DNA from: Myxococcales bacterium
GTDB lineage: Bacteria; UBA10199; 2-02-FULL-44-16; JAAZCA01
Assembly (NCBI GenBank): GCA_012513515.1
Contig: JAAZCA010000029.1
Span: 105,812 to 169,811, forward strand
Direction: 5' to 3'
DNA: 64,000 nt
Of this stretch, positions 20,432 through 54,833 are shown in pieces. How positions within the stretch are numbered: the stretch's first letter is position 1; the number at the start of each line of letters is the position of its first letter. The notes beneath the pieces were generated by a model. It had not been told where the DNA came from and ran no database searches. It saw nothing but the letters and a program-made list of their open reading frames with translations. Both the position numbers and the translations under genes were made by a program.

Positions 20432-20461
20432 AGAAGATGTCACGAACGAGAGGGATCTAGA

Positions 20462-21904: not shown

Positions 21905-21926
21905 CGGGAGCAAACGAGGCTCACCA

Positions 21927-23873
21927 ATGTTTAAAAAGATAAAAATTAAATTTTTGATTCCAATACTCCTCCTCCAGCTGGTCGCCCTCGGCGTACTTGG
22001 CTTCATAGCCCACCGATTCAGCAGCGATCTCTTGACCACCTTGGCCGAACGCGAGTTCAATCTCACAATAGAATCAACCAGACAGCACATAGAATCTGCA
22101 ATCAAGGACAGGCTGGACAAATCCAAGGCATTGCTGAACAACGCGGTGTTCATAAAGTTCAATGCGGCACAGTTTTATAAAAGCGACGCCGACGTGGCTG
22201 TTTTCAATTTCCAGAAAGGAAACGGACTAATCTTCTCCGAACCCGAGGTCGGGGGCCTCGTCAACTACCCAATCGGACTTCTCGCCAATGAAGGCAACAG
22301 GGGCATATCGAGCATGGGTCTCTTTCCATCACAGGAATACGTCGGCAGTGACGGGATGGTTCGCCAGCACGTCTATCTCGGCGGATCGAACGATATCGAC
22401 TTTGAAATCGCATCCCCTGAGAAGCTCGACAGATCACAAGCCGAGTGGTTCAAGGCTGCCATGGCTGGCAACATCTTCGTGGGACGCCCCCAGGAGATGC
22501 CGCTGTATCTGAGAAAATACGATCCGGTCGAAATAGAGTCGGAAGAAGTGGAGAAAAAAGAAAACCTGATAGTCATAGCTATGCCTCATAAAATCGGCGA
22601 CGCTACCGTAGGGGTTCTGATGGTGACCACTCCCCCTGATTTCATATACAATGCCCTGCCGGACCATGAAAGCTCAGCGCTGATAATGCTCGTCGATTCC
22701 AATGGAAACATGATCGCAGAGAGCGGCAACCTCTCTCTTGAAAAATCGATTCCATCTTTCGATCCGGCCAGAGTTACGGCCAGCGGAGCCGACTCGATAC
22801 ACGAAGAAGAGGATCTTCTGGTCTTGCACGAGCCGATCGACGAATCCGGATGGACTCTTTCGATGTTCGCAAAGAAAAGCGATATCTACGGCGCCGTATA
22901 TAAACTCAGAAATAATATTCTGTTCATAGTAGCGATCTCAGTCACCATAATGGCACTCTGCGTATTCTTCATCATAGGCAAATTGCTCCGGCCGATCATA
23001 AAACTGACAAACGCCTCCGACAGGATGGCCGGTGGCGAACTCGGGCTGCAAATCGACAAGAGTTCCGACGATGAAATAGGAAGGCTGACTGAATCATTCA
23101 ACAAGATGAGCACCTCAACCAAAAAGATGCATGACAGGCTCGCCCGCATAAACTTCGTCAGGAAGCAGATGCTGCAAATAATCAGCCACGAGCTTAAAAC
23201 CCCCCTCAACGGAATCATAGGATTCTACGAGCTGATGAAGGATGAAATCATGAAAGGTTCCTCCTCCAGCATGGAGGAGTTTCAGGAATGTTTCGATGGC
23301 TTGGGCGGAAGCATCGAAAAATACAGAATGCTCGTCGAAAGGCTCACTAAAACCACGAGTGTGATGACGGGCGAAATGAAGGGGATCGATGAGGTGGATG
23401 AACCATCGTCGCTTATGGAATCTCTGCAAGCCGCTGTCGATGAAGCCAAAAGGCACCGCAGCTCGATCGAACTCAAATTCGACATGGAAGATTTTGCCGC
23501 AACCAGGGTCGCGGCTCCATTTGGGGCGGTGAAGCTGATCTTCGAAGAGGCCCTCTCCAACGCGATAAAATACTCTCCAGCTGATAGCCCGATAGAGATA
23601 TTCCTATCCAGAGGTGACTCAGAGGCAATAATAGAAGTACACGACAACGGAACAGGTATCCCTCAAAAATATCTGGATGAGGTCATAGAACCTTTCTTCG
23701 AAGTCGCCGATTCTCTCTACCACTCCAGCGGAAAATACAAAGAAGGAGGAGGCGGACTCGGCCTTGGTCTTACAATCATAGGAAATGTTCTCAGGAGATG
23801 CGGCGGCAAGATGAGAATCGAATCGAAGGAAGGAAAAGGCACCTCCCTCATCATCTCCCTTCCGTTGGCATAG
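21927..23873 (+). CDS. sensor histidine kinase with a large periplasmic sensing domain, HAMP, HisKA and HATPase
   Basis: N-terminal TM, then a ~300 aa periplasmic region and a second TM. HAMP (GRLTESFNKM). H-box ISHELKTPLNGIIG. N, G1 and G2 boxes (GGGLGLGL). Confidence 0.85.
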   Translation: MFKKIKIKFLIPILLLQLVALGVLGFIAHRFSSDLLTTLAEREFNLTIESTRQHIESAIKDRLDKSKALLNNAVFIKFNAAQFYKSDADVAVFNFQKGNGLIFSEPEVGGLVNYPIGLLANEGNRGISSMGLFPSQEYVGSDGMVRQHVYLGGSNDIDFEIASPEKLDRSQAEWFKAAMAGNIFVGRPQEMPLYLRKYDPVEIESEEVEKKENLIVIAMPHKIGDATVGVLMVTTPPDFIYNALPDHESSALIMLVDSNGNMIAESGNLSLEKSIPSFDPARVTASGADSIHEEEDLLVLHEPIDESGWTLSMFAKKSDIYGAVYKLRNNILFIVAISVTIMALCVFFIIGKLLRPIIKLTNASDRMAGGELGLQIDKSSDDEIGRLTESFNKMSTSTKKMHDRLARINFVRKQMLQIISHELKTPLNGIIGFYELMKDEIMKGSSSSMEEFQECFDGLGGSIEKYRMLVERLTKTTSVMTGEMKGIDEVDEPSSLMESLQAAVDEAKRHRSSIELKFDMEDFAATRVAAPFGAVKLIFEEALSNAIKYSPADSPIEIFLSRGDSEAIIEVHDNGTGIPQKYLDEVIEPFFEVADSLYHSSGKYKEGGGGLGLGLTIIGNVLRRCGGKMRIESKEGKGTSLIISLPLA

Positions 23874-38234: not shown

Positions 38235-39134
38235 ATGAAGCCCGAAGATATCCTAATTTTGAAGCACGCCTTTGCAGTAGCCGGAAAAGTCGGAGCGAAA
38301 GCCGTCTTGCTTCATACCGATCCGATTGGAGATCTCTACTGTAACGAAAAGATCCCGAAGAAGATAAAGCTAATCCTGCTCTCAAAAAAGAAAAAAATCG
38401 AAGAACCTGAGGGAAAAGAAAAAAGTCTGGCATCGATAGCCACCGGCGTAGTCGCTATCCCGAAGATCCAGCTGATGAGAAATGCCCTTATAAAGATTTC
38501 CACCACCCTCGCCCTCTCCATGGACATGATATCTCCTGGCGACAAGCTGGTGTTCGCCGTTGGAGGATCGGATACGGGTTGTCTGGATCAGATCCAGATC
38601 GTGGATACGTCCAAGGAATCGGAGTTCATAGCTGCGAAGGGGGCAGCCAAGATATCCGAAAGCGTTCCCCCGGAACTCTTCCAGACTGTCCTCAACCTCG
38701 CCGTCGAGCTCGCCGACAAGGGACGCGAGGGAAAACCGGTAGGAACGATCTTCGTAGTCGGCGATCATGAAAAGGTGATGCAGCTCTCCAAGCAGATGAT
38801 AATGAACCCCTTCAAAGGTTACGAAGAGGAGGAGAGGAACATACTCTCCCCCTCGCTGAAGGAAACCATACGGGAGCTATCAGCCATGGATGGTGCCTTC
38901 GTCGTCGCCGACGACGGAACGGTTCTAGCCGCCGGGCGATATCTGGGGGCTGCGAGCGATGAGTCGACACTTCCAAGAGGGCTGGGCAGCCGGCATATAG
39001 CGGCTGCCGGAATCACCGGCTTGACTCAGTCCCTCGCCTTTGTTATCTCGGAGTCCTCTGGTGATGTCAGAATTTTCAAGGGCGGCAAGATCATCATGCA
39101 CATCGAGAAGGCCCCCAATAGAAACAACCGCTAA
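38235..39134 (+). CDS. diadenylate cyclase (DAC/DisA_N domain) protein with an uncharacterised Lys-rich N-terminal domain
   Basis: C-terminal half carries GTIFVVGD...MDGAFVVADDGTVLAAGRYL...GSRHIAAAGITGLTQSLAFVISESSGDVRIF. This parallels GALIV...HDGAVII...GTRHRAA...VSEETG. Confidence 0.7.
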   Translation: MKPEDILILKHAFAVAGKVGAKAVLLHTDPIGDLYCNEKIPKKIKLILLSKKKKIEEPEGKEKSLASIATGVVAIPKIQLMRNALIKISTTLALSMDMISPGDKLVFAVGGSDTGCLDQIQIVDTSKESEFIAAKGAAKISESVPPELFQTVLNLAVELADKGREGKPVGTIFVVGDHEKVMQLSKQMIMNPFKGYEEEERNILSPSLKETIRELSAMDGAFVVADDGTVLAAGRYLGAASDESTLPRGLGSRHIAAAGITGLTQSLAFVISESSGDVRIFKGGKIIMHIEKAPNRNNR

Positions 39135-41524: not shown

Positions 41525-44500
41525 TTATGAAATGAACTTGGTCACATTACGACCGAAGAGTTTGTTAACCGCAGTCACGAGTTGCGGAGATGGAGTTAAC
41601 TTCAAATCATCGGGCAGGGCCAGGATCGTCTCGGTCTTGCTCGGAACAACGAGATGAACAAAGCCCGGGCATTGCCCTGGATATCTCGACAGGACATTTT
41701 TGAGCTGCGCCAGATGCTGGGGGGCAACCTCCGGCTGGCTCAAAAAGAAATGAACGCTCTTGGTCATTTTTTCAGAAACCTCGTCGATAGGCATTATCTG
41801 CGTCGCGATGATCTTGACATTTTCACTATCGACATCGGCAGTCCCCATGACAAATACCGGCTGATCGCTTTTGATCAGCAGATGAACATCGGCATAGAGG
41901 TCTGAAAAGATAACCGCCTCGGCGGAACCTTTTAGATCCTCTATCGTGGCAAAGCCCATCCTATTTCCCTGTTTTGTGGTTATCTCGCGAAGCTTCGATA
42001 CAACCCCGCCGAGTTTAACCTCCTGTTTGTCATTGCAGGATGCCAACTCGACGGTATCGGTATTGGCATACTGCGAGAGCAGTTCCTCGTACTGGGCCAG
42101 GGGATGCCCCGTGATATAGAATCCGAGAGATTCCTTCTCATACGCAAGAAGCTGCCGCTCGCCCCATTCGGAAACATCGGGAAGTTTTGGATCGGAGGAA
42201 AAACCATCGGATGAACCGAGCAGATCGAACAACCTCGCCTGCCCTGAAATTCTGTCCCTCTGCCTGGAGGCAGCCATCTCCATCGCAGTATCGAGGGATG
42301 CTAGAAGAGCCGCCCTGGGAGCCTTAGTAAAATCGAAGGCGCCGCATTTTATTAAGCTCTCGATCACCCTCTTGTTTACCCTTCTAGAATCTATGCGATC
42401 GCAGAAATCGAAAAGCGTCCTAAAAACTCCACCATCATTTCTCGCCGAAACGATGTTCTCTATCGCCCCTTCGCCCACATTTTTTACAGCGCCAAGGCCG
42501 AATCGTATCGTCCCATCGCCAACAACAGAAAAGTCCATCATACTCTCGTTGACATCCGGAGGAAGCATCCTGATTCCAGCAGTCTTGCAATCATTGATGT
42601 AAAAGAGAACCTTGTCGGTGTTGTCCTTTTCAGCGGTAAGGAGCGCCGCCATGAATTCGGTAGGGTGATGAAATTTAAGGTAAGCGGTCTGATACGCAAC
42701 AAGGGCATAGGCAGCGCTGTGGGATTTGTTGAAGCCGTACTCGGCAAACTTCGCCATCAGTTCAAAGAGGCGCTCAGCTTTCGCCTCCGGAATCTTGTTC
42801 TCGAGCGCCCCCTTCACGAACCTCTCGTGCTGCTTGGCCATCTCCTCCGGTTTTTTCTTGCCCATGGCACGGCGAAGAAGGTCCGCTTCTCCAAGGGAAT
42901 AATTGGCAAGGACGTTGGCAATTCGCATCACCTGTTCCTGATAAACTATGACGCCGTAGGTCTCTTTGAGAATTTCCTCTAGCTGCGGCAGTTCATATTT
43001 TATCGGAGTCCTGCCATGCTTCCTGTTGATGAAGTCATCGACCATCCCCGATCCGAGCGGACCAGGACGAAAGAGGGCCACGAGAGCGACGATTTCAGAA
43101 AAAGCACCGGGTTTCAACTTCATGACAAGGTCGGTCATCCCCGAACTTTCCAGTTGGAATATCCCCGCCGTGTCCCCCTGCGAAAGTTTTTTGTAAACGA
43201 GAGGATCGTTCAAAGAAATGGATTCGATATCTATCTTCTCCCCGCTCCCCTTCTCTATCAGCTTGACGCAGTCATCTATGACGGTGAGCGTCTTGAGACC
43301 GAGAAAATCGAACTTGATGAGACCGACCTTCTCCACACACTTCATATCGAATTGAGTTACAATTTCATCCTTCTGCCCCTTGTAGAGCGGCACCAACTCC
43401 GACAGAGGACGATCGGATATCACGACTCCTGCAGCGTGTGTTGAAGCGTGGCGCGGAAAACCCTCAAGCACCTTCGCCACTTCCAGAAGCCTTGCGATTT
43501 CATCCTGCTTTTTAGCGATCTCCTTGAGCTTCGGTTCGATCTTTATCGCATCGGCCAGAGTCATCCCGAGCGTCGCCGGGATCAGCTTCGCGATTCTGTC
43601 TACATCGCCATACGGAATCCCCATCACCCTGCCGACGTCGCGCACCACAGCGCGGGCCTTCATCGTTCCAAAGGTGATGATCTGGCTGACATTGCCGTAT
43701 TTTTTCGAAACGTATGATATAACCTCGTCGCGCCTGCGCATGCAGAAATCGATATCCACATCGGGCATGCTTATTCTTTCCGGATTAAGAAAACGCTCGA
43801 AGAGAAGGCCGTGCTCTATCGGATCGATGTTCGTGATCTCCAGGCAGTACGCAACAAGCGAACCTGCAGCCGATCCACGCCCGGGACCGACGGGGAGTTC
43901 GATCCCCTTGGCGTAGCGTATAAAATCGGCGACGATCAAAAAGTAGCCTGCAAAACCCATCTTGATGATCGTTTCAAGCTCGGTGCGAAGCCTCTCCTGA
44001 TAAACTTTTTTGAGATCATCGAGGTGATCCCTGCCGCGCGAGATGAGCGTCCACCTTTTCTCAAGCCCCTTGATGACTTCCTCACGAAGATGGCTCTGAA
44101 GGTCCATGCCATCCGGAGGGGAATACTTGGGAAAATAGTATGTATTGAAATCGAAATCCATGTTTAGCCTGGCGGCTATTTCAACGGTATTGGAGATCGC
44201 TTCGGGGAAATCAGCAAAAAGTTCGCTCATCTCATCGGGGGATTTAAGGTAGAACTGATCGCTGTCTAACCGCATCCTCTTTTCATCGTCCAGGGTTTTG
44301 CCGGTCTGGATGCAAAGCAGGGCATCATGGGCGGCCGCATCGGACCTGTCTATATAGTGGACATCGTTGGTTGCAACTAGGCCGATCCCTTTCCTCTTGG
44401 CAAGTTCGCACAGCCCTTCACGGATCTTAAGCTGACCTTCGATTCCGTGGTCCATGAGCTCTATAAAGAAATTGTTATTGTCGAAAAGGGAGGCATAAAA

Positions 44501-44989
44501 ATCGACCGCCTTTTCCGCCTCATCCATCCTACCATCTGAGATGAGTTGAGGAATTTCCCCCTTGAGGCATCCGGAAAGGGCTATAAGCCCCTTGCTATGC
44601 TGTCGCAAAATTTCCTTATCTATTCTAGGTTTATAATAGAAACCTTCTAAATAACTTGAACTTACAAGATGGCAGAGATTGCGGTACCCCTCCCTGTTTT
44701 TGACCAGCAGTGTGAGGTGGGTAAGCGCCCCCTTCTGGTTTAAGTCCCTTATCAGCCTGCTCCCCTCGCTGAGGAGATAGACCTCGCAGCCGATGCAGGG
44801 CTTGACGCCGTGCTTGGATATCTTGTCGTAGAAATCTATGGCGCCAAAAAGGTTTCCATGGTCGGTGATCGCCAAAGCCGGCATCTTGAGCTCAGCTGCC
44901 CTTAAGGCGAGCTCGGAGGTGGGCGCCGCCCCGTCGAGCAGGCTGTAATACGAATGGACGTGTAGATGTACGAAGTTTGAGTGGATCAT
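41525..44989 (-). CDS. dnaE: DNA polymerase III subunit alpha
   Basis: 1154 aa. PHP domain HLHVHSYYSLLDGA, polymerase core and OB fold. Confidence 0.97.
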   Translation of the reverse strand: MIHSNFVHLHVHSYYSLLDGAAPTSELALRAAELKMPALAITDHGNLFGAIDFYDKISKHGVKPCIGCEVYLLSEGSRLIRDLNQKGALTHLTLLVKNREGYRNLCHLVSSSYLEGFYYKPRIDKEILRQHSKGLIALSGCLKGEIPQLISDGRMDEAEKAVDFYASLFDNNNFFIELMDHGIEGQLKIREGLCELAKRKGIGLVATNDVHYIDRSDAAAHDALLCIQTGKTLDDEKRMRLDSDQFYLKSPDEMSELFADFPEAISNTVEIAARLNMDFDFNTYYFPKYSPPDGMDLQSHLREEVIKGLEKRWTLISRGRDHLDDLKKVYQERLRTELETIIKMGFAGYFLIVADFIRYAKGIELPVGPGRGSAAGSLVAYCLEITNIDPIEHGLLFERFLNPERISMPDVDIDFCMRRRDEVISYVSKKYGNVSQIITFGTMKARAVVRDVGRVMGIPYGDVDRIAKLIPATLGMTLADAIKIEPKLKEIAKKQDEIARLLEVAKVLEGFPRHASTHAAGVVISDRPLSELVPLYKGQKDEIVTQFDMKCVEKVGLIKFDFLGLKTLTVIDDCVKLIEKGSGEKIDIESISLNDPLVYKKLSQGDTAGIFQLESSGMTDLVMKLKPGAFSEIVALVALFRPGPLGSGMVDDFINRKHGRTPIKYELPQLEEILKETYGVIVYQEQVMRIANVLANYSLGEADLLRRAMGKKKPEEMAKQHERFVKGALENKIPEAKAERLFELMAKFAEYGFNKSHSAAYALVAYQTAYLKFHHPTEFMAALLTAEKDNTDKVLFYINDCKTAGIRMLPPDVNESMMDFSVVGDGTIRFGLGAVKNVGEGAIENIVSARNDGGVFRTLFDFCDRIDSRRVNKRVIESLIKCGAFDFTKAPRAALLASLDTAMEMAASRQRDRISGQARLFDLLGSSDGFSSDPKLPDVSEWGERQLLAYEKESLGFYITGHPLAQYEELLSQYANTDTVELASCNDKQEVKLGGVVSKLREITTKQGNRMGFATIEDLKGSAEAVIFSDLYADVHLLIKSDQPVFVMGTADVDSENVKIIATQIMPIDEVSEKMTKSVHFFLSQPEVAPQHLAQLKNVLSRYPGQCPGFVHLVVPSKTETILALPDDLKLTPSPQLVTAVNKLFGRNVTKFIS

Positions 44990-45075
44990 ATTTTAAACAG
45001 GACCATCCTTATTGCACATGGGGCAAAAATGTCTGCTATTTTTTTCGCTATTTTTGCGATGAAAAACAGGCGAAA

Positions 45076-45837
45076 CTACCTTACTCGGCCAAGAAGGCGC
45101 AAGAACCCATCGAGAACAGTGATTGGATGCGGGGGACAACCCGGAATATAGAGGTCTACTGGTATCAATTTATCCACCCCGCCCTTTACATCCAAATGAC
45201 CGATGAAGGGGCCGCCGGATATGGCACAGGCGCCCGATGCGATTACTATTTTTGGCGAAGGAATCGCGGCATATGTCTTTTCAAGCGCCAGCGCCATGTT
45301 GTTTGAAATTGGGCCGGTGACTAAAATCCCGTCGGCATGCCTTGGCGAAGCTACAAACTGAATTCCAAAGCGCCCGAGGTCGAATACTATCGTCGAAAGA
45401 ACGTTGATATCCGCCTCGCAGGCGTTGCATCCACCGGCGCTAACCTGCCTGAGCTTCAGCGAACGCCCGAAAAGACGAAGCATCTCTTTTTTCAATTTCT
45501 CCGCTAGGCGAAATTCCGCTTCACCGACGATAAGCCCCTCCCGCACACAGGAGGCCAACCGATAATCGCGAGTGAATTTTATCACTCCCTCGCCGCATTC
45601 CCTCTCGCAGTTTCCGCAGAAGATACATTTGCCAAGATCTATGGAAATTCGTCCTTCTCCGCTGCAGCTAAGCGCACCAACAGGACAGCTCTTGACGCAG
45701 AGGCCACAATCTTTTCCGCAGGCCGAATCATCTATCGAAGGCATGCCCCTGAATTTAGCGGGCAAATTCGGTTCAGCATCGGGAAATGCGACGGTCCAGC
45801 TTTTTTGCTGCAATCTGCTTCGAATTATCTTTAACAT
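45076..45837 (-). CDS. group-4 hydrogenase-like complex: 2x[4Fe-4S] ferredoxin (HycF/NuoI-like) fused to small subunit (HycG/NuoB-like)
   Basis: CGLCVKSCP and CIFCGNCERECG, then GGCNACE...GACAISGG...GCPPHP. Confidence 0.8.
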   Translation of the reverse strand: MLKIIRSRLQQKSWTVAFPDAEPNLPAKFRGMPSIDDSACGKDCGLCVKSCPVGALSCSGEGRISIDLGKCIFCGNCERECGEGVIKFTRDYRLASCVREGLIVGEAEFRLAEKLKKEMLRLFGRSLKLRQVSAGGCNACEADINVLSTIVFDLGRFGIQFVASPRHADGILVTGPISNNMALALEKTYAAIPSPKIVIASGACAISGGPFIGHLDVKGGVDKLIPVDLYIPGCPPHPITVLDGFLRLLGRVR

Positions 45838-45847
45838 ATCGCAAACC

Positions 45848-47299
45848 TCATAGATCGTATCCGCAGTATGAGAGGTTAAAGCTCTTATTGATCAGCGGAA
45901 AATCGGATATCTGTCCGTTGCGAAGCGCCATCTCAAGCCCGCTCCAGTTATGGAACGAGGGATCGACGATCTTATAAAAAGCGATCTTTCCATCTTTTCC
46001 GGTCCCGGCCACGTGGCAGATTTCGCCGCGCCACCCCTCGACCATCGAAACAACGAATGAATCCGGAATCAGAGGCCCAAGGTCGGATTTTACATCCCCT
46101 TCCGCCAGCGACTCGAGCTGATTTCTGATGAACTGCGCCGATTTCACAATCTCCAACCACCTGACGTAGGCGCGGGCGAAGACATCCCCCCTGTGCCATG
46201 TCGAAAGAGGGAGATGGGCGAATCTAAATATCCCCACTGGAAAATCGCTTCGCACGTCCATGGCAATACCTGCTGCACGCGCCGCAGGGCCGACTATCCC
46301 CAAAGCGCGGCATAATTCCTTAGGGAGATGACCTGTATCATCAAAGCGCGCAAGCACCGATGGGGAATCCCACAGAAGTTGCGCCGCCGACTCTAAGTCA
46401 CGCATATGGGCGTCGAGACTTTTAAGGATCGCGGAAATTTCGGAAGAACTCAGATCGAAAAGCACACCTCCAGGACGCAGGAGCCCCCTGCCAAAACGGC
46501 TTCCGCATATTCGGGCCTGCAGATTAAGGAAATCGCCGCGCAGCCTCCCGCAGTAGGATGAGGTCGGAAGGTATCCAACATCGCCCGCAAGAGCGCCGAG
46601 GTCGCCCGCATGGTTGGCGATGCGTTCGAGTTCAAGGGCAACCCCCCTGATCATCTGCGCTCTAAGGGGAACCCGGCAGTTAGCAAGCGACTCCACAGCG
46701 TGACAGTACGCCGTAGAATGCCCTATGCTCGTATCCCCCGCTACGGTCTCCATATAATGAATAGTTCTTCTATCAGGTCCGCCGACTATTCCCTTCTCGA
46801 CGCCGCGATGCTGATAGCCTAGATGGATTTCAAGATTGAATACCTCCTCTCCGTGGCATTGAAACCTGAAGTGCCCCGGCTCTATGACGCCGGCATGAAC
46901 AGGACCCACCGCAACCTCATGTACCCCTTCGCCTGAAAGTTCGTAATACTTATACCCTTCGCGCTTGCGCACGGGCTTGAGCCACGGATGCCCCTTTGGC
47001 TCGGCACCGGTCTGTTCGAAAATTTCGCGCTCGAATATATGCGCCTGTGAACATTTTGGAGTGATGGAATCGTACGAACCCTTGACCGACGTGCCGAATG
47101 CGGAGAGGATCCCCGTCTTGTCTTCCGACAGAACGGCGTAGATCATCACCGAACCGCCGGAGGACGGAAGACCAAACATCGCACTGATTCGGAGCCCTGA
47201 ATCCGTTTCCTTTATTACCACCCTCTCGAAATCTTCATTGGAGATTATCGGCAAATCAGATTTCTTTATTACTTCGCAGTTTCTCAAATCGGATCTCAT
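45848..47299 (-). CDS. group-4 hydrogenase-like large subunit (NuoC-NuoD/HycE-like fusion) lacking the NiFe-binding cysteines (Ehr-type)
   Basis: NuoC-like FEREIFEQTGAEPKGHP, then HycE-like GPVHAGVIEPGHFRF. The position of the RxCGxCxxxH motif reads VAGDTSIGH. The C-terminus is NLSYCGYDL instead of DPCxxCxxH. Confidence 0.75.
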   Translation of the reverse strand: MRSDLRNCEVIKKSDLPIISNEDFERVVIKETDSGLRISAMFGLPSSGGSVMIYAVLSEDKTGILSAFGTSVKGSYDSITPKCSQAHIFEREIFEQTGAEPKGHPWLKPVRKREGYKYYELSGEGVHEVAVGPVHAGVIEPGHFRFQCHGEEVFNLEIHLGYQHRGVEKGIVGGPDRRTIHYMETVAGDTSIGHSTAYCHAVESLANCRVPLRAQMIRGVALELERIANHAGDLGALAGDVGYLPTSSYCGRLRGDFLNLQARICGSRFGRGLLRPGGVLFDLSSSEISAILKSLDAHMRDLESAAQLLWDSPSVLARFDDTGHLPKELCRALGIVGPAARAAGIAMDVRSDFPVGIFRFAHLPLSTWHRGDVFARAYVRWLEIVKSAQFIRNQLESLAEGDVKSDLGPLIPDSFVVSMVEGWRGEICHVAGTGKDGKIAFYKIVDPSFHNWSGLEMALRNGQISDFPLINKSFNLSYCGYDL

Positions 47300-48786
47300 C
47301 GTAAGCCTCCGAGTTCTCCGGCAGCCTCAAGAATAAGCGAAGTCAACGCATCGGGAATGCACAGACCCAAAATGAGCACAGCCAGCATCATCACAACCGG
47401 AGGGATGAATGAAAGGATAGGCTCGCGGTTCACACGCTCGGCAGGCAGCTGGTCCATGTTCCCATATGCCATCTTGAAAAAGGGCCCTACCATTCCCACG
47501 AAGACAACGGCCAGAAGCGCAAGATAGGCAACGGCGATGAAAATCCGATCCTGATCGACCATCCCCTTCAGTATCGAAAACTCGCTGAAGAAGGTGCCGA
47601 AGGGAGGAGAACCGGTGATCGCAAAAAAACCTGCCACCCATACCACACCGGAAACAGGCAAAAACCTCAGCACCCCTCTCACTTCAAGTGATGATTTTGA
47701 CCTGTAGAAGGTGAGGATGTTTCCAGCAGTGAAAAACAGGGCAGCCTTGGCAAGGGAATGGTTAACCGCATGCAGCATGCTTCCGTAAACAGCTATCCCC
47801 CCGATGCCCACACCTACCGCCAGTATCCCCATGTGTTCGACGCTGGAATACGCAAGCATCCTCTTGTAATCGTTTTGCCCGAGGATAAAGATCGCGGCGA
47901 TCGCCATCGAGAAGATGCCGAAGATTATCAACAGATCGCGTCCTAACTGTCCCGCCCCCGCTGCATTGAGAAGCTGCTGCGCCCTGATAATCCCCAAAAA
48001 TGAGCAATTGAGAAGCGCGCCGGACAGAAGGGCCGATACGGCGGATGGAGACTCGCTATGAGCATCCGGTAGCCAGGTGTGCATCGGAGCAAGTCCCATC
48101 TTCGTTCCATATCCAACGATGAAAAGCAAAAAGGCCCCCTTCAGCCAGAAAATATTGATATGGCCAAGTGATGCCCTGTTCATGAGCGATGATAAAACAA
48201 GTGAGCTGTGAAGACCCCCTTCCGACACAGCAACTGCAAGAAAAAAGTTGCCCAGCAAGGCGATCACGATTCCCACGGAGCAGATGAGCAAATATTTCCA
48301 CGCGGCTTCCAGCGATCTCTTGTGCATATGATAATAGATAAGCGGCGCGCTAGCCAAAGTTGTCGCCTCCACACCCACCCAGATCATGCCAAACTGGAGA
48401 CTGACGCAGACGAGCGTCATCGTGGAAAGAAAAAGCATCATGCATCCGCAATAGACCGACTCGCTGAAATCGATAAAGGTGGAGGATCCTTCGAAATCCC
48501 GCTTCTTTACAAGAGCTCCGGCGTTGCCGGATCCGACCCTGTATATCGTCGAAAAAAAGAAAAGAAAGCTGGCTACGCTCAAAAAGAGTAGCCCCAATGA
48601 ATCGAGGGCAAACCACCCCTGATAGAATGGCGCGGGTCTCGTGTGCCAGCACCACACCACAAGAGAGAGATGAGCAAAGGCCGTCGATATCATCAGCGCG
48701 CGGGCGGCATAGGCCTTCCTCATGAAGAAGGAAATGATTCCGGCCAAAGCTGGTAGAAGCACGAGTGCGAGTATCATATTCATCAA
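47296..48786 (-). CDS. NuoN/NuoM/MrpD-like antiporter-type membrane subunit
   Basis: 496 aa with about 14 TM helices. Overlaps the large-subunit gene by 4 nt. Confidence 0.75.
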   Translation of the reverse strand: MMNMILALVLLPALAGIISFFMRKAYAARALMISTAFAHLSLVVWCWHTRPAPFYQGWFALDSLGLLFLSVASFLFFFSTIYRVGSGNAGALVKKRDFEGSSTFIDFSESVYCGCMMLFLSTMTLVCVSLQFGMIWVGVEATTLASAPLIYYHMHKRSLEAAWKYLLICSVGIVIALLGNFFLAVAVSEGGLHSSLVLSSLMNRASLGHINIFWLKGAFLLFIVGYGTKMGLAPMHTWLPDAHSESPSAVSALLSGALLNCSFLGIIRAQQLLNAAGAGQLGRDLLIIFGIFSMAIAAIFILGQNDYKRMLAYSSVEHMGILAVGVGIGGIAVYGSMLHAVNHSLAKAALFFTAGNILTFYRSKSSLEVRGVLRFLPVSGVVWVAGFFAITGSPPFGTFFSEFSILKGMVDQDRIFIAVAYLALLAVVFVGMVGPFFKMAYGNMDQLPAERVNREPILSFIPPVVMMLAVLILGLCIPDALTSLILEAAGELGGLR

Positions 48787-49427
48787 TCCTTGAGAGCCGA
48801 CAGAAGAGAGGTGTCGGTTCCATCATACTCCCTGTGTATGTGATAGACGGCAAGCCCCATAACGCTTACCGCAAGCAGCGCATCAATGAGGATTCCAAGC
48901 TCGACGATCATCCCCGCTTCTATATCCAGCGCAAATCCGAAGGCGAAAATACCGTTCTCGAGAATTATATAACCCAGAATCTGGTTTATTGCTTTTCTTC
49001 TGGCTACTATGAAGAATAGTCCGATCAGCATGGTGGAAAGTGCAACTGCGAGGGCGAGAACCGAATGCATATGCCCCACGGCCGGAACCCTAGAGGCGAG
49101 CCAGAGGGATATTATGAATAGAGCAACACCGATGAGAACGGAAACCGTATACCCGACTATAGGCTCTATCTCCCTTCTAAGATTCGTGCTGGAGAGCACC
49201 CTGTTTAGCAAGAAGGGAAAGAGAAAACCCTTAAGCGCTATACTGACAAATGATATGAGATAGGCTCTGAAGAGCTCCCCCTCCGAATGGGCAAAAATAG
49301 GAATCAACCCCAAGAGAATTCCCTGCACGGCCACAACTCGTATCGACGAACGAATTCTGGATGTCACCAGCAGATAAAGATTTGCCAGAACCAAAAGTAT
49401 GAGTATGGAATCTATCGCGCTCTTCAC
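48783..49427 (-). CDS. HyfE-like small membrane subunit
   Basis: 214 aa polytopic membrane protein in the HyfE position. 4 nt overlap upstream. Confidence 0.55.
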   Translation of the reverse strand: MKSAIDSILILLVLANLYLLVTSRIRSSIRVVAVQGILLGLIPIFAHSEGELFRAYLISFVSIALKGFLFPFLLNRVLSSTNLRREIEPIVGYTVSVLIGVALFIISLWLASRVPAVGHMHSVLALAVALSTMLIGLFFIVARRKAINQILGYIILENGIFAFGFALDIEAGMIVELGILIDALLAVSVMGLAVYHIHREYDGTDTSLLSALKD

Positions 49428-49431
49428 AAAT

Positions 49432-50349
49432 TCACCCCAATAAAAAAGAAATGAGAAAAGCCAGCATTGCCACAGAAGCAGCTCCGCTCAAAAGCTGCGG
49501 CACGCGCATCATCTTCAACCTCGCCATCGTGGATTCAACAACGCCTACGGCTATCGCCGTGATGAATATAATAGATATACTCGATAGCAGGGAAAGTGCA
49601 CAACTGGAGGAACTGGAAGGAAATATCACGCCGCCGAAGAGCGATGAGAAGATCCACAATTTCAAAGCCGCACCATAAGTTATAAAGGCGAGATCAGGTC
49701 CGCCCAAATCCAACACCATAACCTCATGGATCATGGTCAGCTCGAGATGGGTATTTGGATCGTCAATCGGTATCCTGGAATTTTCAGCCAGAAGCACTAT
49801 GAACAGAACCACGGCCGCAAGGAATATCGCCATACCATGCCCTCCCCAGGAAGAGGCCAGTCCGGAATATATTCCGGAGAGGGAAAAAGAATCGGATACC
49901 CTCGCAAGAGTGAGCAGTGATATCATAAGCGTCGGCTCGGCCAGCGCTGAAAACATGACATCGCGTGAAGCCCCCATCCCTTCAAAACTTGAACCGGCAT
50001 CGAGAGCGCTTAGCACTACGAAGAATCTGGCTACTCCGAGAAGATAAGCAAAGAGTATCAGATCGCCTGAAAAGGAGAGGAATGATGCGCCTCCTCCCAG
50101 AGGGAGCAGCGATAGAGAGATCATCACCGCAACGAGTGAAATCGCAGGCCCTATTTTGGAGATCCAGGTGGCGCTCCAGCTGATCACCGCACCTTTCCTG
50201 AGAAGTTTTATTATGTCATAGTAATTCTGGAGCAAGGGAGCCCCCTTGCGACCAGCAAACTTCGCCTTGGTTCTGTTGATGATGCCGGGCACAAGAGGTG
50301 CCAGGACAAGAGCTGCTGCAATATTTATCAAACCAATCATATTCATCAT
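49432..50349 (-). CDS. NuoH/HycD-like membrane subunit
   Basis: Internal start MMNMIGL gives a 4 nt overlap with the upstream gene. The longer track ORF to 50436 would overlap it by 91 nt. Confidence 0.7.
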   Translation of the reverse strand: MMNMIGLINIAAALVLAPLVPGIINRTKAKFAGRKGAPLLQNYYDIIKLLRKGAVISWSATWISKIGPAISLVAVMISLSLLPLGGGASFLSFSGDLILFAYLLGVARFFVVLSALDAGSSFEGMGASRDVMFSALAEPTLMISLLTLARVSDSFSLSGIYSGLASSWGGHGMAIFLAAVVLFIVLLAENSRIPIDDPNTHLELTMIHEVMVLDLGGPDLAFITYGAALKLWIFSSLFGGVIFPSSSSSCALSLLSSISIIFITAIAVGVVESTMARLKMMRVPQLLSGAASVAMLAFLISFLLG

Positions 50350-52358
50350 AGTCCACCAAGCTTCCATAGAAGCAAAGCGAGCAAAGTGAATGCTATATAA
50401 AGGATGTACAGATGCACGCTCCCATTTTGCAGCCACCTGAACGCGAATGCAGTTTTTTGGATAAACTTAAAGAGTGGAGCAAAGATCCCCTCTCTGAAGA
50501 TGTCAGCAGGATGCGCCTCGTAGGATCCGCCATCCGGAAAAAAATCCTTCAGGACCGGAGGCGAAGTCCTGATTCTCACCAGCGATTTAAAAAGGCCGAC
50601 GAGCGGAGCGGCGAATGACGATGCCGTGTACTGCATTTTAGGAGATGGTAGCTCATATCCGCAATCCCACGTCGGAGAAGTTGTCACCTCTCGCCTGCGG
50701 AGCAACCGCTTTCTCAAATACATCACCGCACCTGTAAGAAATATCAGCACAGTGGCAGCAGAAGCGACAACTATCATCGGCCATCGTGCAAATGAAAGAG
50801 CGCTGCCAGCAGATTCACCATCCAGGGATATGGAAGAAACAAGGACGGGAATCATCAAACCCAAAATTAGAGGACCGCAGAGTCCTATGAAAGCACAAGC
50901 GCCGGACAGGACGATCATAGGCAGACGCATGGCCATCGGGACTTCGGAGGACTTCGATGCCCCCTCTTCGCGTGGCTCACCTAAAAACACAACGCCAAAG
51001 GCCTTTGCAAAACACGCCGATGCCAGCCCTCCTATTAACGCCAAGCCTGCGATGGTTATTAAAGCCGGAACAAAACTCCAGATCCCTGCAAGGTTTGAGG
51101 CTGAAAGATGTGAAATGTACAATATCGCTGAAAGATAGATCAGCAACTCACTTACAAAACCATTGAGCGGAGGAAGCCCTGCAATAGCAACCGAGCCAAC
51201 AAGGAAGGAAGCCCCGGTGACCGGCATGCGTTTCAGGAGACCGCCGAGACGATCTATCGAGGTCGTTCGGGTCGAGTACAAAACCGAGCCGGCGCCAAGA
51301 AAGAGCAAGCCCTTGAAAAGGGCGTGATTAAGAACGTGCAGAAGAGCTCCGGCAAAACCAAGCGCAGCGACGACATTCGCCCCACTGGCCACACCAACAG
51401 TACCGATTCCGATTCCAAGAAATATGATCCCGATATTTTCAACACTGTGATAAGCAAGAAGCGACTTCAGATCGTGCTGCGCAAGCGCGTACAAAACGCC
51501 AAGAACGCCGGAGGTCAAGCCGATGAAAATAAGCAGGTACCCCAACCAGATATGATCGAACCCAAAAAATATCATCATTCTAAGCAGGCCGTATATACCG
51601 GTCTTTATCATCACCCCCGACATTATCGCGGATATATGCGAGGGCGCGGCGGGATGGGCTTCCGGAAGCCATACGTGAAGCGGTATGACACCGGCCTTGC
51701 TGCCAAACCCCACCACCGCCAGAAGGAACATCCCAAAAAGTTCCGGGCTAGCGAGCGAGGACAACGTGCCCCATTCGGAAAAATTGAAGCTGCCAGCCCT
51801 GACTCCCGCGATCGCAAAAAACAGGAACAAAAATGCCGTCCCTATGTGCGTAGCCACGAGATAGGTCCATCCAGCTGACCTGACATTTTTCCTTTCACTG
51901 TTGAAACAGACCAGAAAAAATGAGGAAAGTGCCATTATTTCCCACGCAAAGAGAAATAAAATTGCGTTGCGCGCGATGATGACTGCGACCATGCTAACGA
52001 TCAGAAGCGACAGATAAAACCATGAGGAGCCGGTCGATTTCCTACCCGCAAGCTCAGGCAGATATCTGGCCCCATAGAGGGCTGAAAGAGCCGACAGTAT
52101 AAAAACGGGGATCAGAAATAAGGCCGAAAGAGAATCGATTCCGACATCGAAAGATCCGTAAGGGACGCTCCATTCGGCAGAAAAACTCAACGGGACTGAA
52201 GCAAAGAGCGCAGCAAAAACCTGAAAAAGACCCAAGATAGCGCCCAAAGAAATACCAAGCGAGGAAAAGAGAGCGGCTTTTCTGGAAGAATTACCCAGCA
52301 GAAGTGAAAGCACTCCCCCCAATAGGATGGCGACGATGGAAAATCCTGTCAGGATCAT
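50346..52358 (-). CDS. NuoL/HyfB-like antiporter-type membrane subunit
   Basis: 670 aa with NuoL-like TM topology. Confidence 0.75.
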   Translation of the reverse strand: MILTGFSIVAILLGGVLSLLLGNSSRKAALFSSLGISLGAILGLFQVFAALFASVPLSFSAEWSVPYGSFDVGIDSLSALFLIPVFILSALSALYGARYLPELAGRKSTGSSWFYLSLLIVSMVAVIIARNAILFLFAWEIMALSSFFLVCFNSERKNVRSAGWTYLVATHIGTAFLFLFFAIAGVRAGSFNFSEWGTLSSLASPELFGMFLLAVVGFGSKAGVIPLHVWLPEAHPAAPSHISAIMSGVMIKTGIYGLLRMMIFFGFDHIWLGYLLIFIGLTSGVLGVLYALAQHDLKSLLAYHSVENIGIIFLGIGIGTVGVASGANVVAALGFAGALLHVLNHALFKGLLFLGAGSVLYSTRTTSIDRLGGLLKRMPVTGASFLVGSVAIAGLPPLNGFVSELLIYLSAILYISHLSASNLAGIWSFVPALITIAGLALIGGLASACFAKAFGVVFLGEPREEGASKSSEVPMAMRLPMIVLSGACAFIGLCGPLILGLMIPVLVSSISLDGESAGSALSFARWPMIVVASAATVLIFLTGAVMYLRKRLLRRREVTTSPTWDCGYELPSPKMQYTASSFAAPLVGLFKSLVRIRTSPPVLKDFFPDGGSYEAHPADIFREGIFAPLFKFIQKTAFAFRWLQNGSVHLYILYIAFTLLALLLWKLGGL

Positions 52359-53056
52359 AGCGCCACCTCATCTTTCTTTATCTTGCAGGGGAAGGATTCT
52401 ATTCTTTCCAGATCTCCGAACAAAAGCTCTGGAGAGGCGCGGTCGATGAGAAGCTTTCTGAATGAATCGTCATGAATAGCAAGGCTAATCATGGAAAGAA
52501 GATGCAGATGCTCCCTTATAGTGTTGCTGATTATAAGGAAAAAGATATCCACGGGCTTTTTGTCGGCAGCACCGAAGTCAATCGGATGTTCCATGAAACA
52601 AAGGGATACGCTGGAATCGGAGCGACCAAGCACTATGGGCTTTCTAGGGTGCGGAATAGCTATCCCATAGCCAACTCCGGTAGAACCCAACCCTTCCCTG
52701 GATAGAAGAAGCTGATACAGAAATTCTTCATCCACGTCATTTGGAATGCGCAAAGAGGAGACTATCGAACGAAGTGCAGACTCCCTATCGGTTCCCTTGA
52801 GGCCGTAGTGAATTCCACCGAGACGCAATGCCTTTGAAAATGACGAAAAATCGAAACCGATATCATCCGAAGATCTGAGAGCAGCCCTTGAAAGGCGGAG
52901 CCCTCTCACCGATGCCCAGTCAAGCACCTCGGATTTTATAAATCTGTTTTGCCCCTTCACACTATAGCAAGGCAGACCGTCACTCTTCACCCATCTGGAA
53001 ACGGTGCCCTCGGAAACATCGAACATATCGGCAATATCACTAATTGTGAGTCTCAT
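52355..53056 (-). CDS. HTH (MerR/excisionase-type) plus PTS EIIA type-2 domain regulator
   Basis: ISDIADMFDVSEGTVSRWVK is an HTH. GVGYGIAIPHPR is the EIIA-2 phospho-His motif. Overlaps the first Ehr gene by 4 nt (ATGA). Confidence 0.65.
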   Translation of the reverse strand: MRLTISDIADMFDVSEGTVSRWVKSDGLPCYSVKGQNRFIKSEVLDWASVRGLRLSRAALRSSDDIGFDFSSFSKALRLGGIHYGLKGTDRESALRSIVSSLRIPNDVDEEFLYQLLLSREGLGSTGVGYGIAIPHPRKPIVLGRSDSSVSLCFMEHPIDFGAADKKPVDIFFLIISNTIREHLHLLSMISLAIHDDSFRKLLIDRASPELLFGDLERIESFPCKIKKDEVAL

Positions 53057-53104
53057 GGTTGCGCATAGCTACACTATCGCAGTGATAAAATCAACATGCT
53101 CGCC

Positions 53105-53145
53105 CAATAACTTCGACCATGGACAATTGACCATCGACAAAAACA
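53105..53145. repeat. dispersed palindromic repeat, copy 3 (left half only)
   Basis: CAATAACTTCGACCATGGACAATTGACCATCGACAAAAACA. Shares 35 nt, including the left flank, with copy 1. Confidence 0.6.
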
Positions 53146-53148
53146 TCA

Positions 53149-53242
53149 AGAAGCTAGAATCTAGAAGTGAGAAGCGAGATTTCTACAAGCGAGGTTTTTC
53201 TAGCTTCTAGCCTCTCGCTTCTAGCTTCTAGCTTCTGTTTTT
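53149..53242. repeat. CTAG-dense imperfect hairpin with an (AGCTTCT)3 tandem, followed by a T run
   Basis: GAAGCTAGAATCTAGAAGTGAGAAGCGAG...CTCGCTTCTAGCTTCTAGCTTCTGTTTTT. 7 CTAG in about 90 nt. Confidence 0.6.
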
Positions 53243-53291
53243 CCCCGGTCACGGTCGTTGCGGGGATGATAGCCTTCACAAACCACGGCAG

Positions 53292-54833
53292 TTATTCCCA
53301 CTCTATGGTGGCGGGAGGTTTCGATGAGATATCGTACACGACGCGGTTGATCCCCTTCACCTCGTTGATGATTCGATTTGATATCGCACCGAGAACTTCG
53401 TACGGGATATGCGCCCAATCGGCGGTCATACCATCGATCGAGGTCACCGCTCGCACAGCAACCACGTTCTCGTAAGTTCGTTCGTCCCCCATGACGCCTA
53501 CAGACTTCACCGGAAGAAGAACGCAAAAGCACTGCCAGATTTTATTATAGAGCCCCGCCGCCTTTATCTCCTGCATCAGGATATCGTCGGCATCGCGCAG
53601 AAGGTCGAGACGATCCCTGGTTATATTACCTACCACCCTGACCGCAAGCCCAGGGCCGGGAAAGGGCTGTCTGGCTACGATCTCCTCAGGCATACCGAGT
53701 TTTCTGCCAACCTCGCGAACCTCATCTTTGAAGAGCTCCCTGAAAGGCTCCACGAGGCTAAGCCCCATCTTTTCAGGCAATCCTCCGACGTTATGGTGAC
53801 TTTTTATCATAGCCGACGGCCCCCTGAAGGAGACCGACTCGATGACATCCGGATAGAGCGTTCCCTGTGCAAGATATTTCACATCTCCAAGTCTTTTAGC
53901 CCTCTCCTCAAACACCTCTATGAATACTCGTCCTATTATCTTACGCTTTTTTTCCGGATCCTCGACGCCGGAAAGCTCGGAAAGAAATTTCTGTGAGGCA
54001 TCGACGACTTCGAGATTGATGTGAAAATTATCGCGAAAAATTTTCTCGACCTTGGCGGCCTCGGATTTCCTCAAAAGGCCGTTATCGACGAATATGCAGG
54101 TGAGCTTCTCTCCTATTGCGCTGTGCAAAAGCATGGCGGCGACCGAGGAATCCACCCCTCCGGAGAGACCCAGTATCACCCTTTCCTCCCCAACCCTGTT
54201 CCTAATCTCATCTCTCTGAATCTCGATGAATGAATCCATCGTCCAGTCGGCCTTGCATTCGCATATCTTAAAAAGAAAATTGGAAATAAGAGCGCCTCCC
54301 TCCGGAGTATGCGTAACCTCAGGATGGAACTGGACGCCAATCACCGTGTTGGCAGCGTTGGAAATGATCGCACACGAGGAGTTGTCGCTACGCGCGATCA
54401 CGCGAAATCCGTCGGGAATTCTTTCGACCTTGTCGCCGTGGCTCATCCATACCGGCATCGGCCATGACTTGATCCCCGAAAATACCGGATGCGATTCGTC
54501 GGCTGTGAGCATGGCGCGCCCGTATTCCCGTTTGCCGGCACGCACCACCTCTCCTCCGAGCAACTTCGATATCGACTGCATCCCGTAACAGATCCCCAGA
54601 ACGGGAAGACCTAGAGAAAGCAGCTTCGGATTCAGGACCGGGGAGCCCTCTTCGGTGACAGATGCTGGAGAACCGGAAAGGATTACTCCTTTTGCTCCAA
54701 ATTTTTCCACCTCCGAGAGGGGCCAATTGAACGGATGAATTTCGCAATAGACATTGGCCTCTCGAACGCGCCTGGCTATCAGCTGGGTATACTGCGAACC
54801 GAAATCCAAAATTAGAATTTTACTGTAGTCCAT
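53292..54833 (-). CDS. guaA: GMP synthase (glutamine-hydrolysing)
   Basis: GATase [12 protein letters not shown]-loop SGGVDSSV. 513 aa. Confidence 0.95.

Follow-up and report, generated by a model that had tools for sequence, protein, structure and literature searches.

An HTH–EIIA regulator gene is a conserved member of Ehr hydrogenase-related clusters across phyla

What can a membrane complex built like a group 4 hydrogenase do when its large subunit carries no nickel–iron ligands, and what is a DNA-binding protein with a phosphotransferase system (PTS) EIIA domain doing at the head of its operon? Both questions are raised by a locus in a 64,000-nucleotide (nt) stretch of a Myxococcales bacterium genome (GCA_012513515.1, contig JAAZCA010000029.1, positions 105,812 to 169,811), hereafter the window, in which seven tightly packed minus-strand genes occupy positions 45076–53056 between dnaE (41525–44989) and guaA (53292–54833). 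On gene content the operon is assigned as ehrR-ABCDLS, of the Ehr (energy-converting/Ech-hydrogenase-related) type, a naming applied because the subunit names in PMC7894505 fit the gene set of the window. The family and its ligand loss are already in the literature, and the window holds one more ordinary Ehr member. What is new is that the gene for the helix-turn-helix (HTH)–EIIA protein, EhrR, is a conserved member of Ehr clusters across phyla, with a conserved phospho-histidine and a candidate operator. The searchable literature, which did not extend to Coppi 2005 and Marreiros 2013, reportedly the founding papers on a family said to have been named in 2005, holds no paper tying Ehr to a PTS EIIA domain or to this candidate operator. 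The seven genes are as follows.

52355–53056, minus strand: ehrR-like regulator (EhrR), 233 aa; HTH_17 (PF12728, 3e-10) and PTS_EIIA_2 (PF00359, 1.5e-21)
50346–52358, minus strand: EhrA, HyfB/HycC/NuoL-like antiporter-type membrane subunit, 670 aa; PF00361 (5e-54), NCBIfam hydrogenase 4 subunit B (4.7e-177)
49432–50349, minus strand: EhrB, NuoH/HycD-like membrane subunit, 305 aa from ATG 50349; PF00146 (3.3e-29)
48783–49427, minus strand: EhrC, HyfE-like (NuoK/J-type) membrane subunit, 214 aa, GTG start; NCBIfam hydrogenase 4 membrane subunit (1.6e-27), PF00420 (2.7e-6)
47296–48786, minus strand: EhrD, HyfF/NuoN/M-like antiporter-type membrane subunit, 496 aa from TTG 48786 (or ATG 48783); PF00361 (5.8e-49), NCBIfam hydrogenase 4 subunit F (2e-100)
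45848–47299, minus strand: EhrL, NuoC–NuoD/HycE-like large subunit without [NiFe] ligands, 483 aa; PF00346 (Complex1_49kDa, 9.5e-35), PF00329 (Complex1_30kDa, 5e-5)
45076–45837, minus strand: EhrS, HycF/NuoI-like 2x[4Fe-4S] domain fused to a HycG/NuoB-like domain, 253 aa; PF01058 (NuoB/Oxidored_q6, 8.5e-27) and Fer4 families

The positions of these open reading frames (ORFs) are exactly those given in a preliminary description of this DNA, and the gene order it proposed (regulator, NuoL-, NuoH-, HyfE- and NuoN-like subunits, large subunit, HycF–HycG fusion) agrees with the ORFs and their domain matches, every assignment being backed by Pfam and NCBIfam. It also placed 4-nt ATGA overlaps at 52355, 50346, 48783 and 47296. 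Three of these are present (regulator/EhrA, 52358–52355; EhrA/EhrB, 50349–50346; EhrD/EhrL, 47299–47296), but the one at 48783 is not: the EhrC/EhrD junction reads TTGATG, so that EhrD begins either at TTG, overlapping EhrC by 4 nt, or at ATG, overlapping it by 1 nt. EhrB and EhrC are spaced by 4 nt, and EhrL and EhrS by 10 nt. For EhrB, the start at ATG 50349 is favoured over a longer GTG ORF reaching 50436, because alignments with homologues start at the first residue of the shorter version.

How constant is the company that EhrR keeps? The six-subunit set of the window was found in 80 related loci, which represent Planctomycetota, Verrucomicrobiota, Spirochaetota, Thermoanaerobaculia, Geobacterales, Desulfovibrionales and Gemmatimonadota, together with Elusimicrobiota, Hydrogenedentota, Fibrobacterota, Chlamydiota, Omnitrophota, Riflebacteria and one alphaproteobacterium. 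A tblastn survey of the seven window proteins against these loci, with the 52 that extend at least 6.5 kb upstream of EhrL taken as informative, placed a full-length HTH–EIIA homologue (25–49% identity) within the cluster or at its head in 40 of the 52. Its gene usually lies directly before EhrA. In other clusters it precedes two EhrA paralogues, lies between them (Opitutales-type Verrucomicrobia and a Desulfomicrobium), directly precedes EhrL with a 4-nt overlap (L010, Planctomycetaceae; comparison loci carry the prefix L) or follows EhrS (L077). In Geobacter the EhrR gene is oriented divergently, and in some Geobacterales (L031, L051) the HTH–EIIA gene and one EhrA paralogue are transcribed divergently. 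Approached from the regulator, a fully sensitive search among 1.84 billion representative proteins returned 222 representatives at E ≤ 1e-30, nearly all of them two-domain proteins of 215–260 aa, and EhrA follows in all seven homologues with enough downstream DNA (three on long contigs, four on short metagenome contigs). The metagenome scan, run with GYGIAIPH, yielded mostly generic PtsN genes; true two-domain relatives were found only in L081–L088, all short contigs, and in the four of these with downstream DNA EhrA is the next gene every time. When every ORF of 83 loci was clustered all against all, the only recurrent same-strand families in the flanks were the Ehr subunits and EhrR; therefore, at the family level, no electron-input module is linked to Ehr, and EhrR is the only conserved accessory gene.

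Two apparent fusions of the regulator to an Ehr subunit (a 780-aa ORF in L037 and the 836-aa P0360) contain out-of-frame-looking low-complexity stretches and were treated as frameshift artefacts; in L037 an Arg also replaces the phospho-His, and neither was used as Rosetta-stone evidence. A second, more divergent HTH–EIIA paralogue (26–43% identity) is encoded close to the Ehr cluster in L004 (19478–20092, minus strand), L065 (9261–9896, plus strand) and L066 (1299–1955, minus strand).

In EhrR, an HTH_17 winged helix (residues 3–48; PF12728, 40.7 bits against a cut-off of 27) is joined by a linker to an EIIA-Ntr-like PTS_EIIA_2 domain (approximately residues 73–221; PF00359, 77.3 bits against a cut-off of 27), with the phospho-acceptor His136 in GIAIPH (nt 52651–52649). 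Weaker NCBIfam matches of the protein, to an anti-phage-system HTH (MADS1), excisionase and BldC, all fall under their curated cut-offs. Among solved structures, E. coli PtsN (1a6j, E = 4e-13) comes closest, with GIAIPH lying on the PtsN phospho-His motif; the score of 60 against the NCBIfam PtsN equivalog is below its cut-off of 138.7, and EhrR is therefore EIIA-Ntr-like rather than PtsN itself. In an AlphaFold2 model (pLDDT, predicted local distance difference test, 84.9) a beta-alpha-alpha-beta-beta-alpha N-terminal domain and a disordered linker precede the EIIA domain, whose best fold match is PtsN 3urr (template modelling score 0.78–0.80; about 0.8 to the EIIA-Ntr structures 3urr and 2a0j). 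His136, H183, R120 and R138, as well as W22, P29 and W47 of the HTH domain, are invariant in 32 EhrR homologues, and among 49 cluster-encoded copies conservation of His136 reaches at least 90%. Elsewhere in the window, a 267-aa protein (15492–16295, minus strand) combines a second EIIA(Ntr)-type domain (PTS_EIIA_2, 1.2e-26), with the phospho-His motif GDGIAIPHARL, and a fused C-terminal C4 zinc ribbon (Zn_ribbon_9), and the organism seems to use several EIIA-domain output proteins.

If EhrR is a DNA-binding protein, where might it bind? Upstream of orthologous regulators we found tandem boxes with the consensus TGTCCAnAnnTGTCCAA. The strict form TGTC[CT]N4-6TGTC[CT] occurs 31 times on both strands of 2.8 Mb; 16 of these matches, in 13 loci, lie no more than 200 nt upstream of a regulator start and on its strand, against 0.11 expected (about 150-fold), mostly at −49 to −51, and two further matches lie between the regulator and EhrA. 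A position weight matrix (PWM) derived from these sites also picks out loci outside its training set (L023, 20.7 bits; L161, 16.2; L026, 9.0; L030, 7.8; background 99th percentile, 6.5). In most such loci a TTGACA stands about 23 nt upstream of the first box, and the boxes abut a −10-like hexamer, a placement that would fit promoter occlusion. MerR-like HTH_17 proteins of the BldC type bind direct repeats as head-to-tail multimers (PMC5859096). An inverted box, GGACA (L003, L004, L015) or GGGCA (L002, L006, L009), lies 20–25 nt upstream of the TGTCC direct repeats, and the GGACA copy falls inside the −35/−10 spacer of several ehrR promoters, so that the operator may comprise three boxes, one running in the opposite direction.

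Binding to target proteins is the usual mode of action of EIIA(Ntr) proteins, which raises the alternative that EhrR is mainly a protein–protein regulator or a loosely bound subunit, acting on the complex as PtsN acts on TrkA or KdpD, and not a transcription factor. The variable position of its gene (before EhrA, between two EhrA genes, before EhrL or after EhrS) suits a component better than a promoter-proximal regulator, and the window has no recognisable operator. We consider this alternative improbable, since the HTH_17 domain is conserved with its invariant Trp and Pro residues, the tandem boxes are enriched at a fixed distance upstream of the gene, and the two apparent subunit fusions look like frameshift artefacts.

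In the window itself, the intergenic region between guaA and ehrR contains three features.

53138–53236, minus strand: long imperfect palindrome with tandem GCTAGAAG repeats followed by U-rich UUGAUGUUUUUG; supported by RNA folding and conserved in L166
53113–53140, minus strand: 14-bp-period direct repeat TTGTCGATGGTCAA / TTGTCCATGGTCGA with TGTC(G/C) cores; read directly from the sequence
53066–53094, minus strand: tentative candidate promoter TTGATT-N17-TAGCTA, 9 nt upstream of the regulator ATG; from pairwise alignment with L166

The palindrome folds at −48.6 kcal/mol (z = −4.8; none of 200 shuffles folds as well). It is much longer than a usual terminator, but is probably the intrinsic terminator of guaA, insulating the ehr operon. 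The candidate promoter stretch is the only gene-adjacent intergenic part conserved in L166, where the palindrome upstream is conserved too; we call it tentative because the consensus scan did not report it. That promoter and terminator scan of 44900–53400 gave counts at or under the shuffle expectation, an Rfam search of the region found no match at E ≤ 0.1, and the 86-nt gap between EhrS and dnaE holds no terminator-like site, so that read-through into dnaE is possible. Overlaps or gaps of no more than 10 nt, no excess of internal sites, and a strong hairpin with a U-tract after guaA support co-transcription of the regulator with ehrABCDLS from a predicted promoter of its own downstream of the guaA terminator. 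The preliminary description had suggested phosphorelay control of the complex from the HTH–EIIA gene in first-cistron position. This suggestion is strengthened by the regulator/EhrA overlap, the hairpin behind guaA, the retained phospho-His and the conservation across phyla.

What, then, is being regulated? The resemblance of the complex to Ehr, proposed in the same description, holds: full-length alignment gives EhrL 52–56% identity with its counterparts in Geobacter sp., Geomonas limicola and Pelobacter loci, whose clusters are syntenic, and the invariant motifs of the Geobacter and Geomonas proteins recur in it; orthology was judged on these relatives and not on the G. sulfurreducens PCA sequence itself. 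In G. sulfurreducens the Ech-hydrogenase-related complex includes EhrA-1, C, L and S and is encoded by GSU0739–0745 (PMC7894505, PMC8691401). Ehr complexes lack the Ni/Fe ligands and are of unknown function (PMC6349859, PMC10284858, PMC12342949), as a 2025 survey still states (PMC12342949). The family is large. A protein search returned at least 8000 proteins at E ≤ 1e-10, the best non-identical matches listed being about 60% identical, and at least 600 stretches in species-representative genomes were confirmed as relatives, spanning Planctomycetota, Verrucomicrobiota, Desulfobacterota, Acidobacteriota, Spirochaetota, Gemmatimonadota and other phyla. The closest relative, L166 (GCA_040767565.1, JAXGOG010000014.1), has a regulator 88% identical to EhrR and the same guaB-guaA-ehr-dnaE synteny; its gene calls split guaB, guaA, ehrD, ehrL and ehrS, most likely through assembly indels and not because these are real pseudogenes. 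Many clusters carry two EhrA (NuoL-like) paralogues (L013, L017, L029, L042, L046, L066, L161, L044, L047, L052, L053, L070, L079). Plasmid 3 of Variovorax sp. PBL-E5 (L164, NZ_LR594673.1, 3860–19383) carries two neighbouring Ehr/Hyf-like clusters separated by about 3.4 kb, neither of them with an HTH–EIIA gene. In the first, which has a CopG-family gene upstream, the small subunit is fused and the large subunit shares 42% identity with EhrL.

Phmmer against the PDB sequences gave E. coli HycE as the best match of EhrL (7z0s_E, 7.5e-44), followed by P. furiosus MbhL (2.3e-36) and T. thermophilus Nqo4 (1e-33). EhrL matches neither of the group 4 [NiFe]-hydrogenase motifs, RxCGxCxxxH (L1) and DPCxxCxxH/R (L2). 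The preliminary description had pointed to VAGDTSIGH (residues 186–194; nt 46744–46718) and the C-terminal NLSYCGYDL (residues 475–483; nt 45877–45851) as replacements of the ligand motifs, concluding that both were gone, and to GPVHAGVIEPGHFRF (residues 132–146) as a retained HycE fold signature. Alignments to HycE, MbhL and Nqo4 bear out the ligand loss and reveal no Cys pairs at L1 or L2: DRVCGICGFAH of HycE and ERMCGICSFSH of MbhL lie over ETVAGDTSIGH, and DPCYSC of HycE over NLSYCG, so that Cys is found at none of the four Ni–Fe ligand positions. Nor does an L1 Cys occur in any of 79 EhrL homologues from many phyla, in which the segment reads [A/S/G]GD[T/S/A/V]. One cysteine, C479, lies one residue ahead of the second L2 ligand position. 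Among 25 homologues sharing about 60% identity, hardly any variation is seen in ETxAGDTxxGH and NKSFNLSYCGxDL, the most invariant parts of EhrL at this distance. Across the 79 homologues, residue 479 is Ala or Ser in eight and residue 481 is H, F or Y, so no replacement metal site is evident, though the region is strongly constrained. EhrL ends at the conserved ...GYDL without a C-terminal maturation extension, and no hyp or maturation-protease gene is present in the window. The quinone ligand Tyr87 of complex I (Nqo4 numbering) aligns with Gly188 of EhrL, and Nqo4 His38 lies over Ile139 in an ungapped HMMER alignment, the alignment of the beta1–beta2 loop being ambiguous there. Without [NiFe] ligands the complex is therefore not a conventional hydrogenase.

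The statement that it cannot be a hydrogenase at all stands for [NiFe] chemistry, with a caveat: the Cys-less Hyq has genetic, non-biochemical links to H2 recycling (PMC2650096, PMC3357923). This is the basis of an alternative in which the complex is a non-[NiFe] endo-hydrogenase, a cytoplasm-facing H2:quinone oxidoreductase as claimed for Hyq of Azorhizobium caulinodans. In its favour, hyqRBCEFGI has the identical order of gene types (regulator, B, C, E, F, G, I), both CxxC motifs are missing from HyqG (PMC3357923), and H2 evolution during N2 fixation is about tenfold higher in delta-hyq mutants (PMC3357923, PMC2650096). Moreover, a Hyq large subunit from Rhizobium can be aligned with the whole of EhrL, and both have the invariant GD and the C-terminal NKSFN.SY.G.DL. 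Nevertheless, no cell-free hydrogenase assay exists for Hyq, whose Ni,Fe site its authors call 'uncertain, if not unlikely' (PMC3357923); Hyq is 32–35% identical, with an unrelated XRE-type regulator and a NuoB-only small subunit; hyp genes are missing from the window; and H2 does not raise Ehr expression in Nitrospira moscoviensis (PMC12342949). The hyq phenotype could also be indirect, with less electron flux to nitrogenase causing a larger share to be lost as H2. We regard an endo-hydrogenase as quite improbable.

In contrast to the lost catalytic centre, the electron-transfer and ion-translocating parts are well preserved. In the alignment of EhrS with HycG (7z0s_G, E = 4.6e-33) the four Cys of the proximal cluster are all matched (GGCNAC, GACA, GCPP), as they are with the ligands of MbhJ; two four-Cys motifs, C40–C51 and C71–C81, lie in the HycF-like N-terminus of EhrS (3e-11). 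Fifty-two of 67 homologues matched all FeS motif patterns searched. EhrA aligns with HycC (7z0s_C, E = 1.6e-74) and MbhH and keeps the canonical antiporter-type Glu, Lys and His in the motifs WEIMA, GSKAGVIPLHVWLPEAH and HALFK; the EhrD translation shows VEATT, GTKMGLAPMHTWLPDAH and SLAKAALF, the same antiporter motifs as in EhrA. The complex thus keeps a three-cluster [4Fe-4S] wire and the ion-translocation apparatus without hydrogenase chemistry, with EhrA, EhrD, EhrB and EhrC as the membrane arm and EhrL and EhrS as a minimal cytoplasmic arm. Two antiporter-like subunits with intact charged residues and an EhrL in which no substrate site is identifiable might also suggest a vestigial redox arm and a redox-independent, Mrp-like cation transporter. 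With the Cys sets of all three FeS clusters conserved, and the former active-site segments the most invariant parts of EhrL among homologues of about 60% identity, which argues for a working site, we consider such a transporter highly unlikely.

Where do the electrons come from? Within 10 kb on either side of the operon the genes are housekeeping only (dnaE, hflX, guaA, guaB, an OmpA-family gene, a BamB-like gene and others), and formate dehydrogenase (FDH), CO dehydrogenase and hyp genes are absent from the entire window, in line with the initial observation that no FDH, CO dehydrogenase or other input module is adjacent. The window also encodes, about 6 kb from the ehr operon, a diadenylate cyclase in which a DacZ_P-type sensor domain at the N-terminus accompanies the DAC domain (38235–39134, plus strand), and a small signalling cluster (19436–23873, plus strand) of a response-regulator/HD-domain protein, a solute-binding protein and a dCache-HAMP histidine kinase. 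An input partner such as FDH could be encoded elsewhere in the genome, with Ehr as the membrane-coupling module of a larger 'FDH-Ehr' enzyme. An enzyme of this kind was put forward for Margulisbacteria and Saganbacteria (PMC6349859), every Ehr subunit is present in greater amounts when G. sulfurreducens grows on formate (PMC7894505), and the best solved Ehr relative is E. coli formate hydrogenlyase. Yet no FDH or other redox gene is linked in the window or recurs in the flanks of the 83 loci, and EhrS has its own ferredoxin-type entry domain, as Ech and Mbh do, which makes the alternative unlikely in our view. Ech and Mbh use free ferredoxin.

We propose that Ehr is a ferredoxin-linked, ion-translocating oxidoreductase whose acceptor is perhaps a quinone and which is autoregulated by a PTS-phosphorylatable repressor, a reading that we consider probable but hold with clear reservations. 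According to this hypothetical scenario, (i) a soluble low-potential carrier, most likely ferredoxin, would exchange electrons with the two outer EhrS clusters; (ii) electrons would pass through the proximal cluster to a non-metal site at the EhrL/EhrS/EhrB junction; (iii) the acceptor there would most likely be a membrane quinone, a weakly supported choice given the absence of the complex I Tyr; (iv) EhrA and EhrD would couple the redox reaction reversibly to H+ or Na+ translocation; (v) EhrR would bind the tandem TGTCC boxes abutting the −10 element and act as an autorepressor; and (vi) phosphorylated NPr or HPr, reporting carbon or nitrogen status, would phosphorylate EhrR and alter its DNA binding. 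Ferredoxin is suggested as partner by Ech and Mbh, which share this minimal cytoplasmic arm, and by the lack of a linked input module.

Several observations weigh against this proposal. To our knowledge, no Ehr has been subjected to a biochemical substrate test. With Gly188 at the Tyr87 position, a complex I-type quinone site is not evident, and the substitutions at residues 479 and 481 leave no alternative metal site apparent. Ehr-carrying Riflemargulisbacteria reportedly lack quinone biosynthesis (PMC6349859). On the regulatory side, linkage is not universal, as 12 of the 52 informative loci lack EhrR (no alternative regulator being evident upstream of EhrA in EhrR-less loci); the tandem TGTCC element occurs in only about one third of the orthologous loci; and the window has no 10-bp-period TGTCC operator, its best PWM score being −1.8. 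The 14-bp-period repeat at 53113–53140 was considered as a possible degenerate operator and set aside on this same score and because it is not conserved in the syntenic L166. Finally, the window contains neither an HPr/NPr-type motif nor a gene for enzyme I.

A more specific version of the proposal, which we put forward as doubtful, is that EhrR is a dedicated PTS-Ntr-responsive switch, present in many phyla, which acts through conserved TGTCC direct repeats and couples the expression of a minimal complex I-like machine to carbon and nitrogen status, and that Ehr is a reversible ferredoxin:quinone oxidoreductase able to supply low-potential ferredoxin at the expense of the ion gradient. The parallel between Ehr, with its EIIA-Ntr-type regulator, and Hyq, under NifA, is suggestive of nitrogen- or carbon-status control of both. 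If this version were true, nitrogen-linked control of Ehr and Hyq and an indirect H2 phenotype of hyq, through the electron supply of nitrogenase, would be explained together. Ehr is an abundant, multi-phylum complex whose reaction has been unknown since 2005, and EhrR offers an experimental handle on the signal and on the switching-on of the operon.

Compared with known systems, the window locus is closest to the Ehr of G. sulfurreducens (EhrA-1/A-2, B, C, D, L, S; GSU0739–0745), with which it shares the six subunit types in the same order, a large subunit without [NiFe] Cys ligands and a small subunit with the proximal-cluster ligands; the AGDT and NKSFNLSYCG.DL motifs are also those of Geobacter and Geomonas large subunits. 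Geobacterales Ehr differs in having two EhrA paralogues, whereas the window encodes only one EhrA, and its regulator is strictly co-linear. Hyq of Azorhizobium caulinodans and rhizobia has the same seven-gene layout with the regulator first and a Cys-less large subunit. It differs in the low identity of that subunit, in a HyqI without a ferredoxin-type domain, and in HyqR, a 104-aa XRE-type HTH_3 protein, with expression dependent on NifA and sigma-54 (PMC2650096). In the hyq operon of Rhizobium ruizarguesonis pTA1_4 (L165, 3415–10893) the XRE-type HTH gene comes first and overlaps hyfB by 4 nt. Rhizobium HyqR was examined as an EhrR homologue and dismissed (BLASTP E = 16; HTH_3 against HTH_17). 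Large-subunit divergence, the NuoB-only small subunit and the unrelated first gene in L165 mark Hyq as a sub-type separate from Ehr, and unrelated small DNA-binding proteins in first-cistron position suggest that autoregulators may have been recruited independently in the two.

E. coli formate hydrogenlyase and hydrogenase 4 (Hyc/Hyf, group 4a, PDB 7z0s) provide the best solved homologues of EhrA, EhrL and EhrS and have a similar, hyf-like gene order. They differ in that EhrL has all four Ni–Fe Cys replaced and no C-terminal maturation extension, HycF and HycG are fused in EhrS, and the ehr locus has no hyp, hycI, FdhF or HycB genes. Complex I/NDH-1 shares the module architecture, the antiporter-like subunits and a Cys-less former NiFe site. 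In contrast to complex I, Ehr has neither the NuoEFG input module nor NuoA or a NuoJ/K set, it has Gly in place of Tyr87, and the similarity of EhrL to NuoD (1e-33) is weaker than that to HycE. PtsN (EIIA-Ntr) has in common with EhrR the EIIA-2 fold, the GIAIPH phospho-His motif and the second conserved His; it is a single-domain protein acting by protein–protein contact, whereas EhrR adds an N-terminal HTH_17 and is encoded in a respiratory-type operon. Winged-helix proteins of the BldC/Xis/RdfS type share HTH_17 with EhrR, and its candidate targets are direct repeats with a 10-bp period, as for BldC (PMC5859096). Unlike these proteins, which have a single domain and no sensor, EhrR adds a putatively phosphorylatable EIIA domain.

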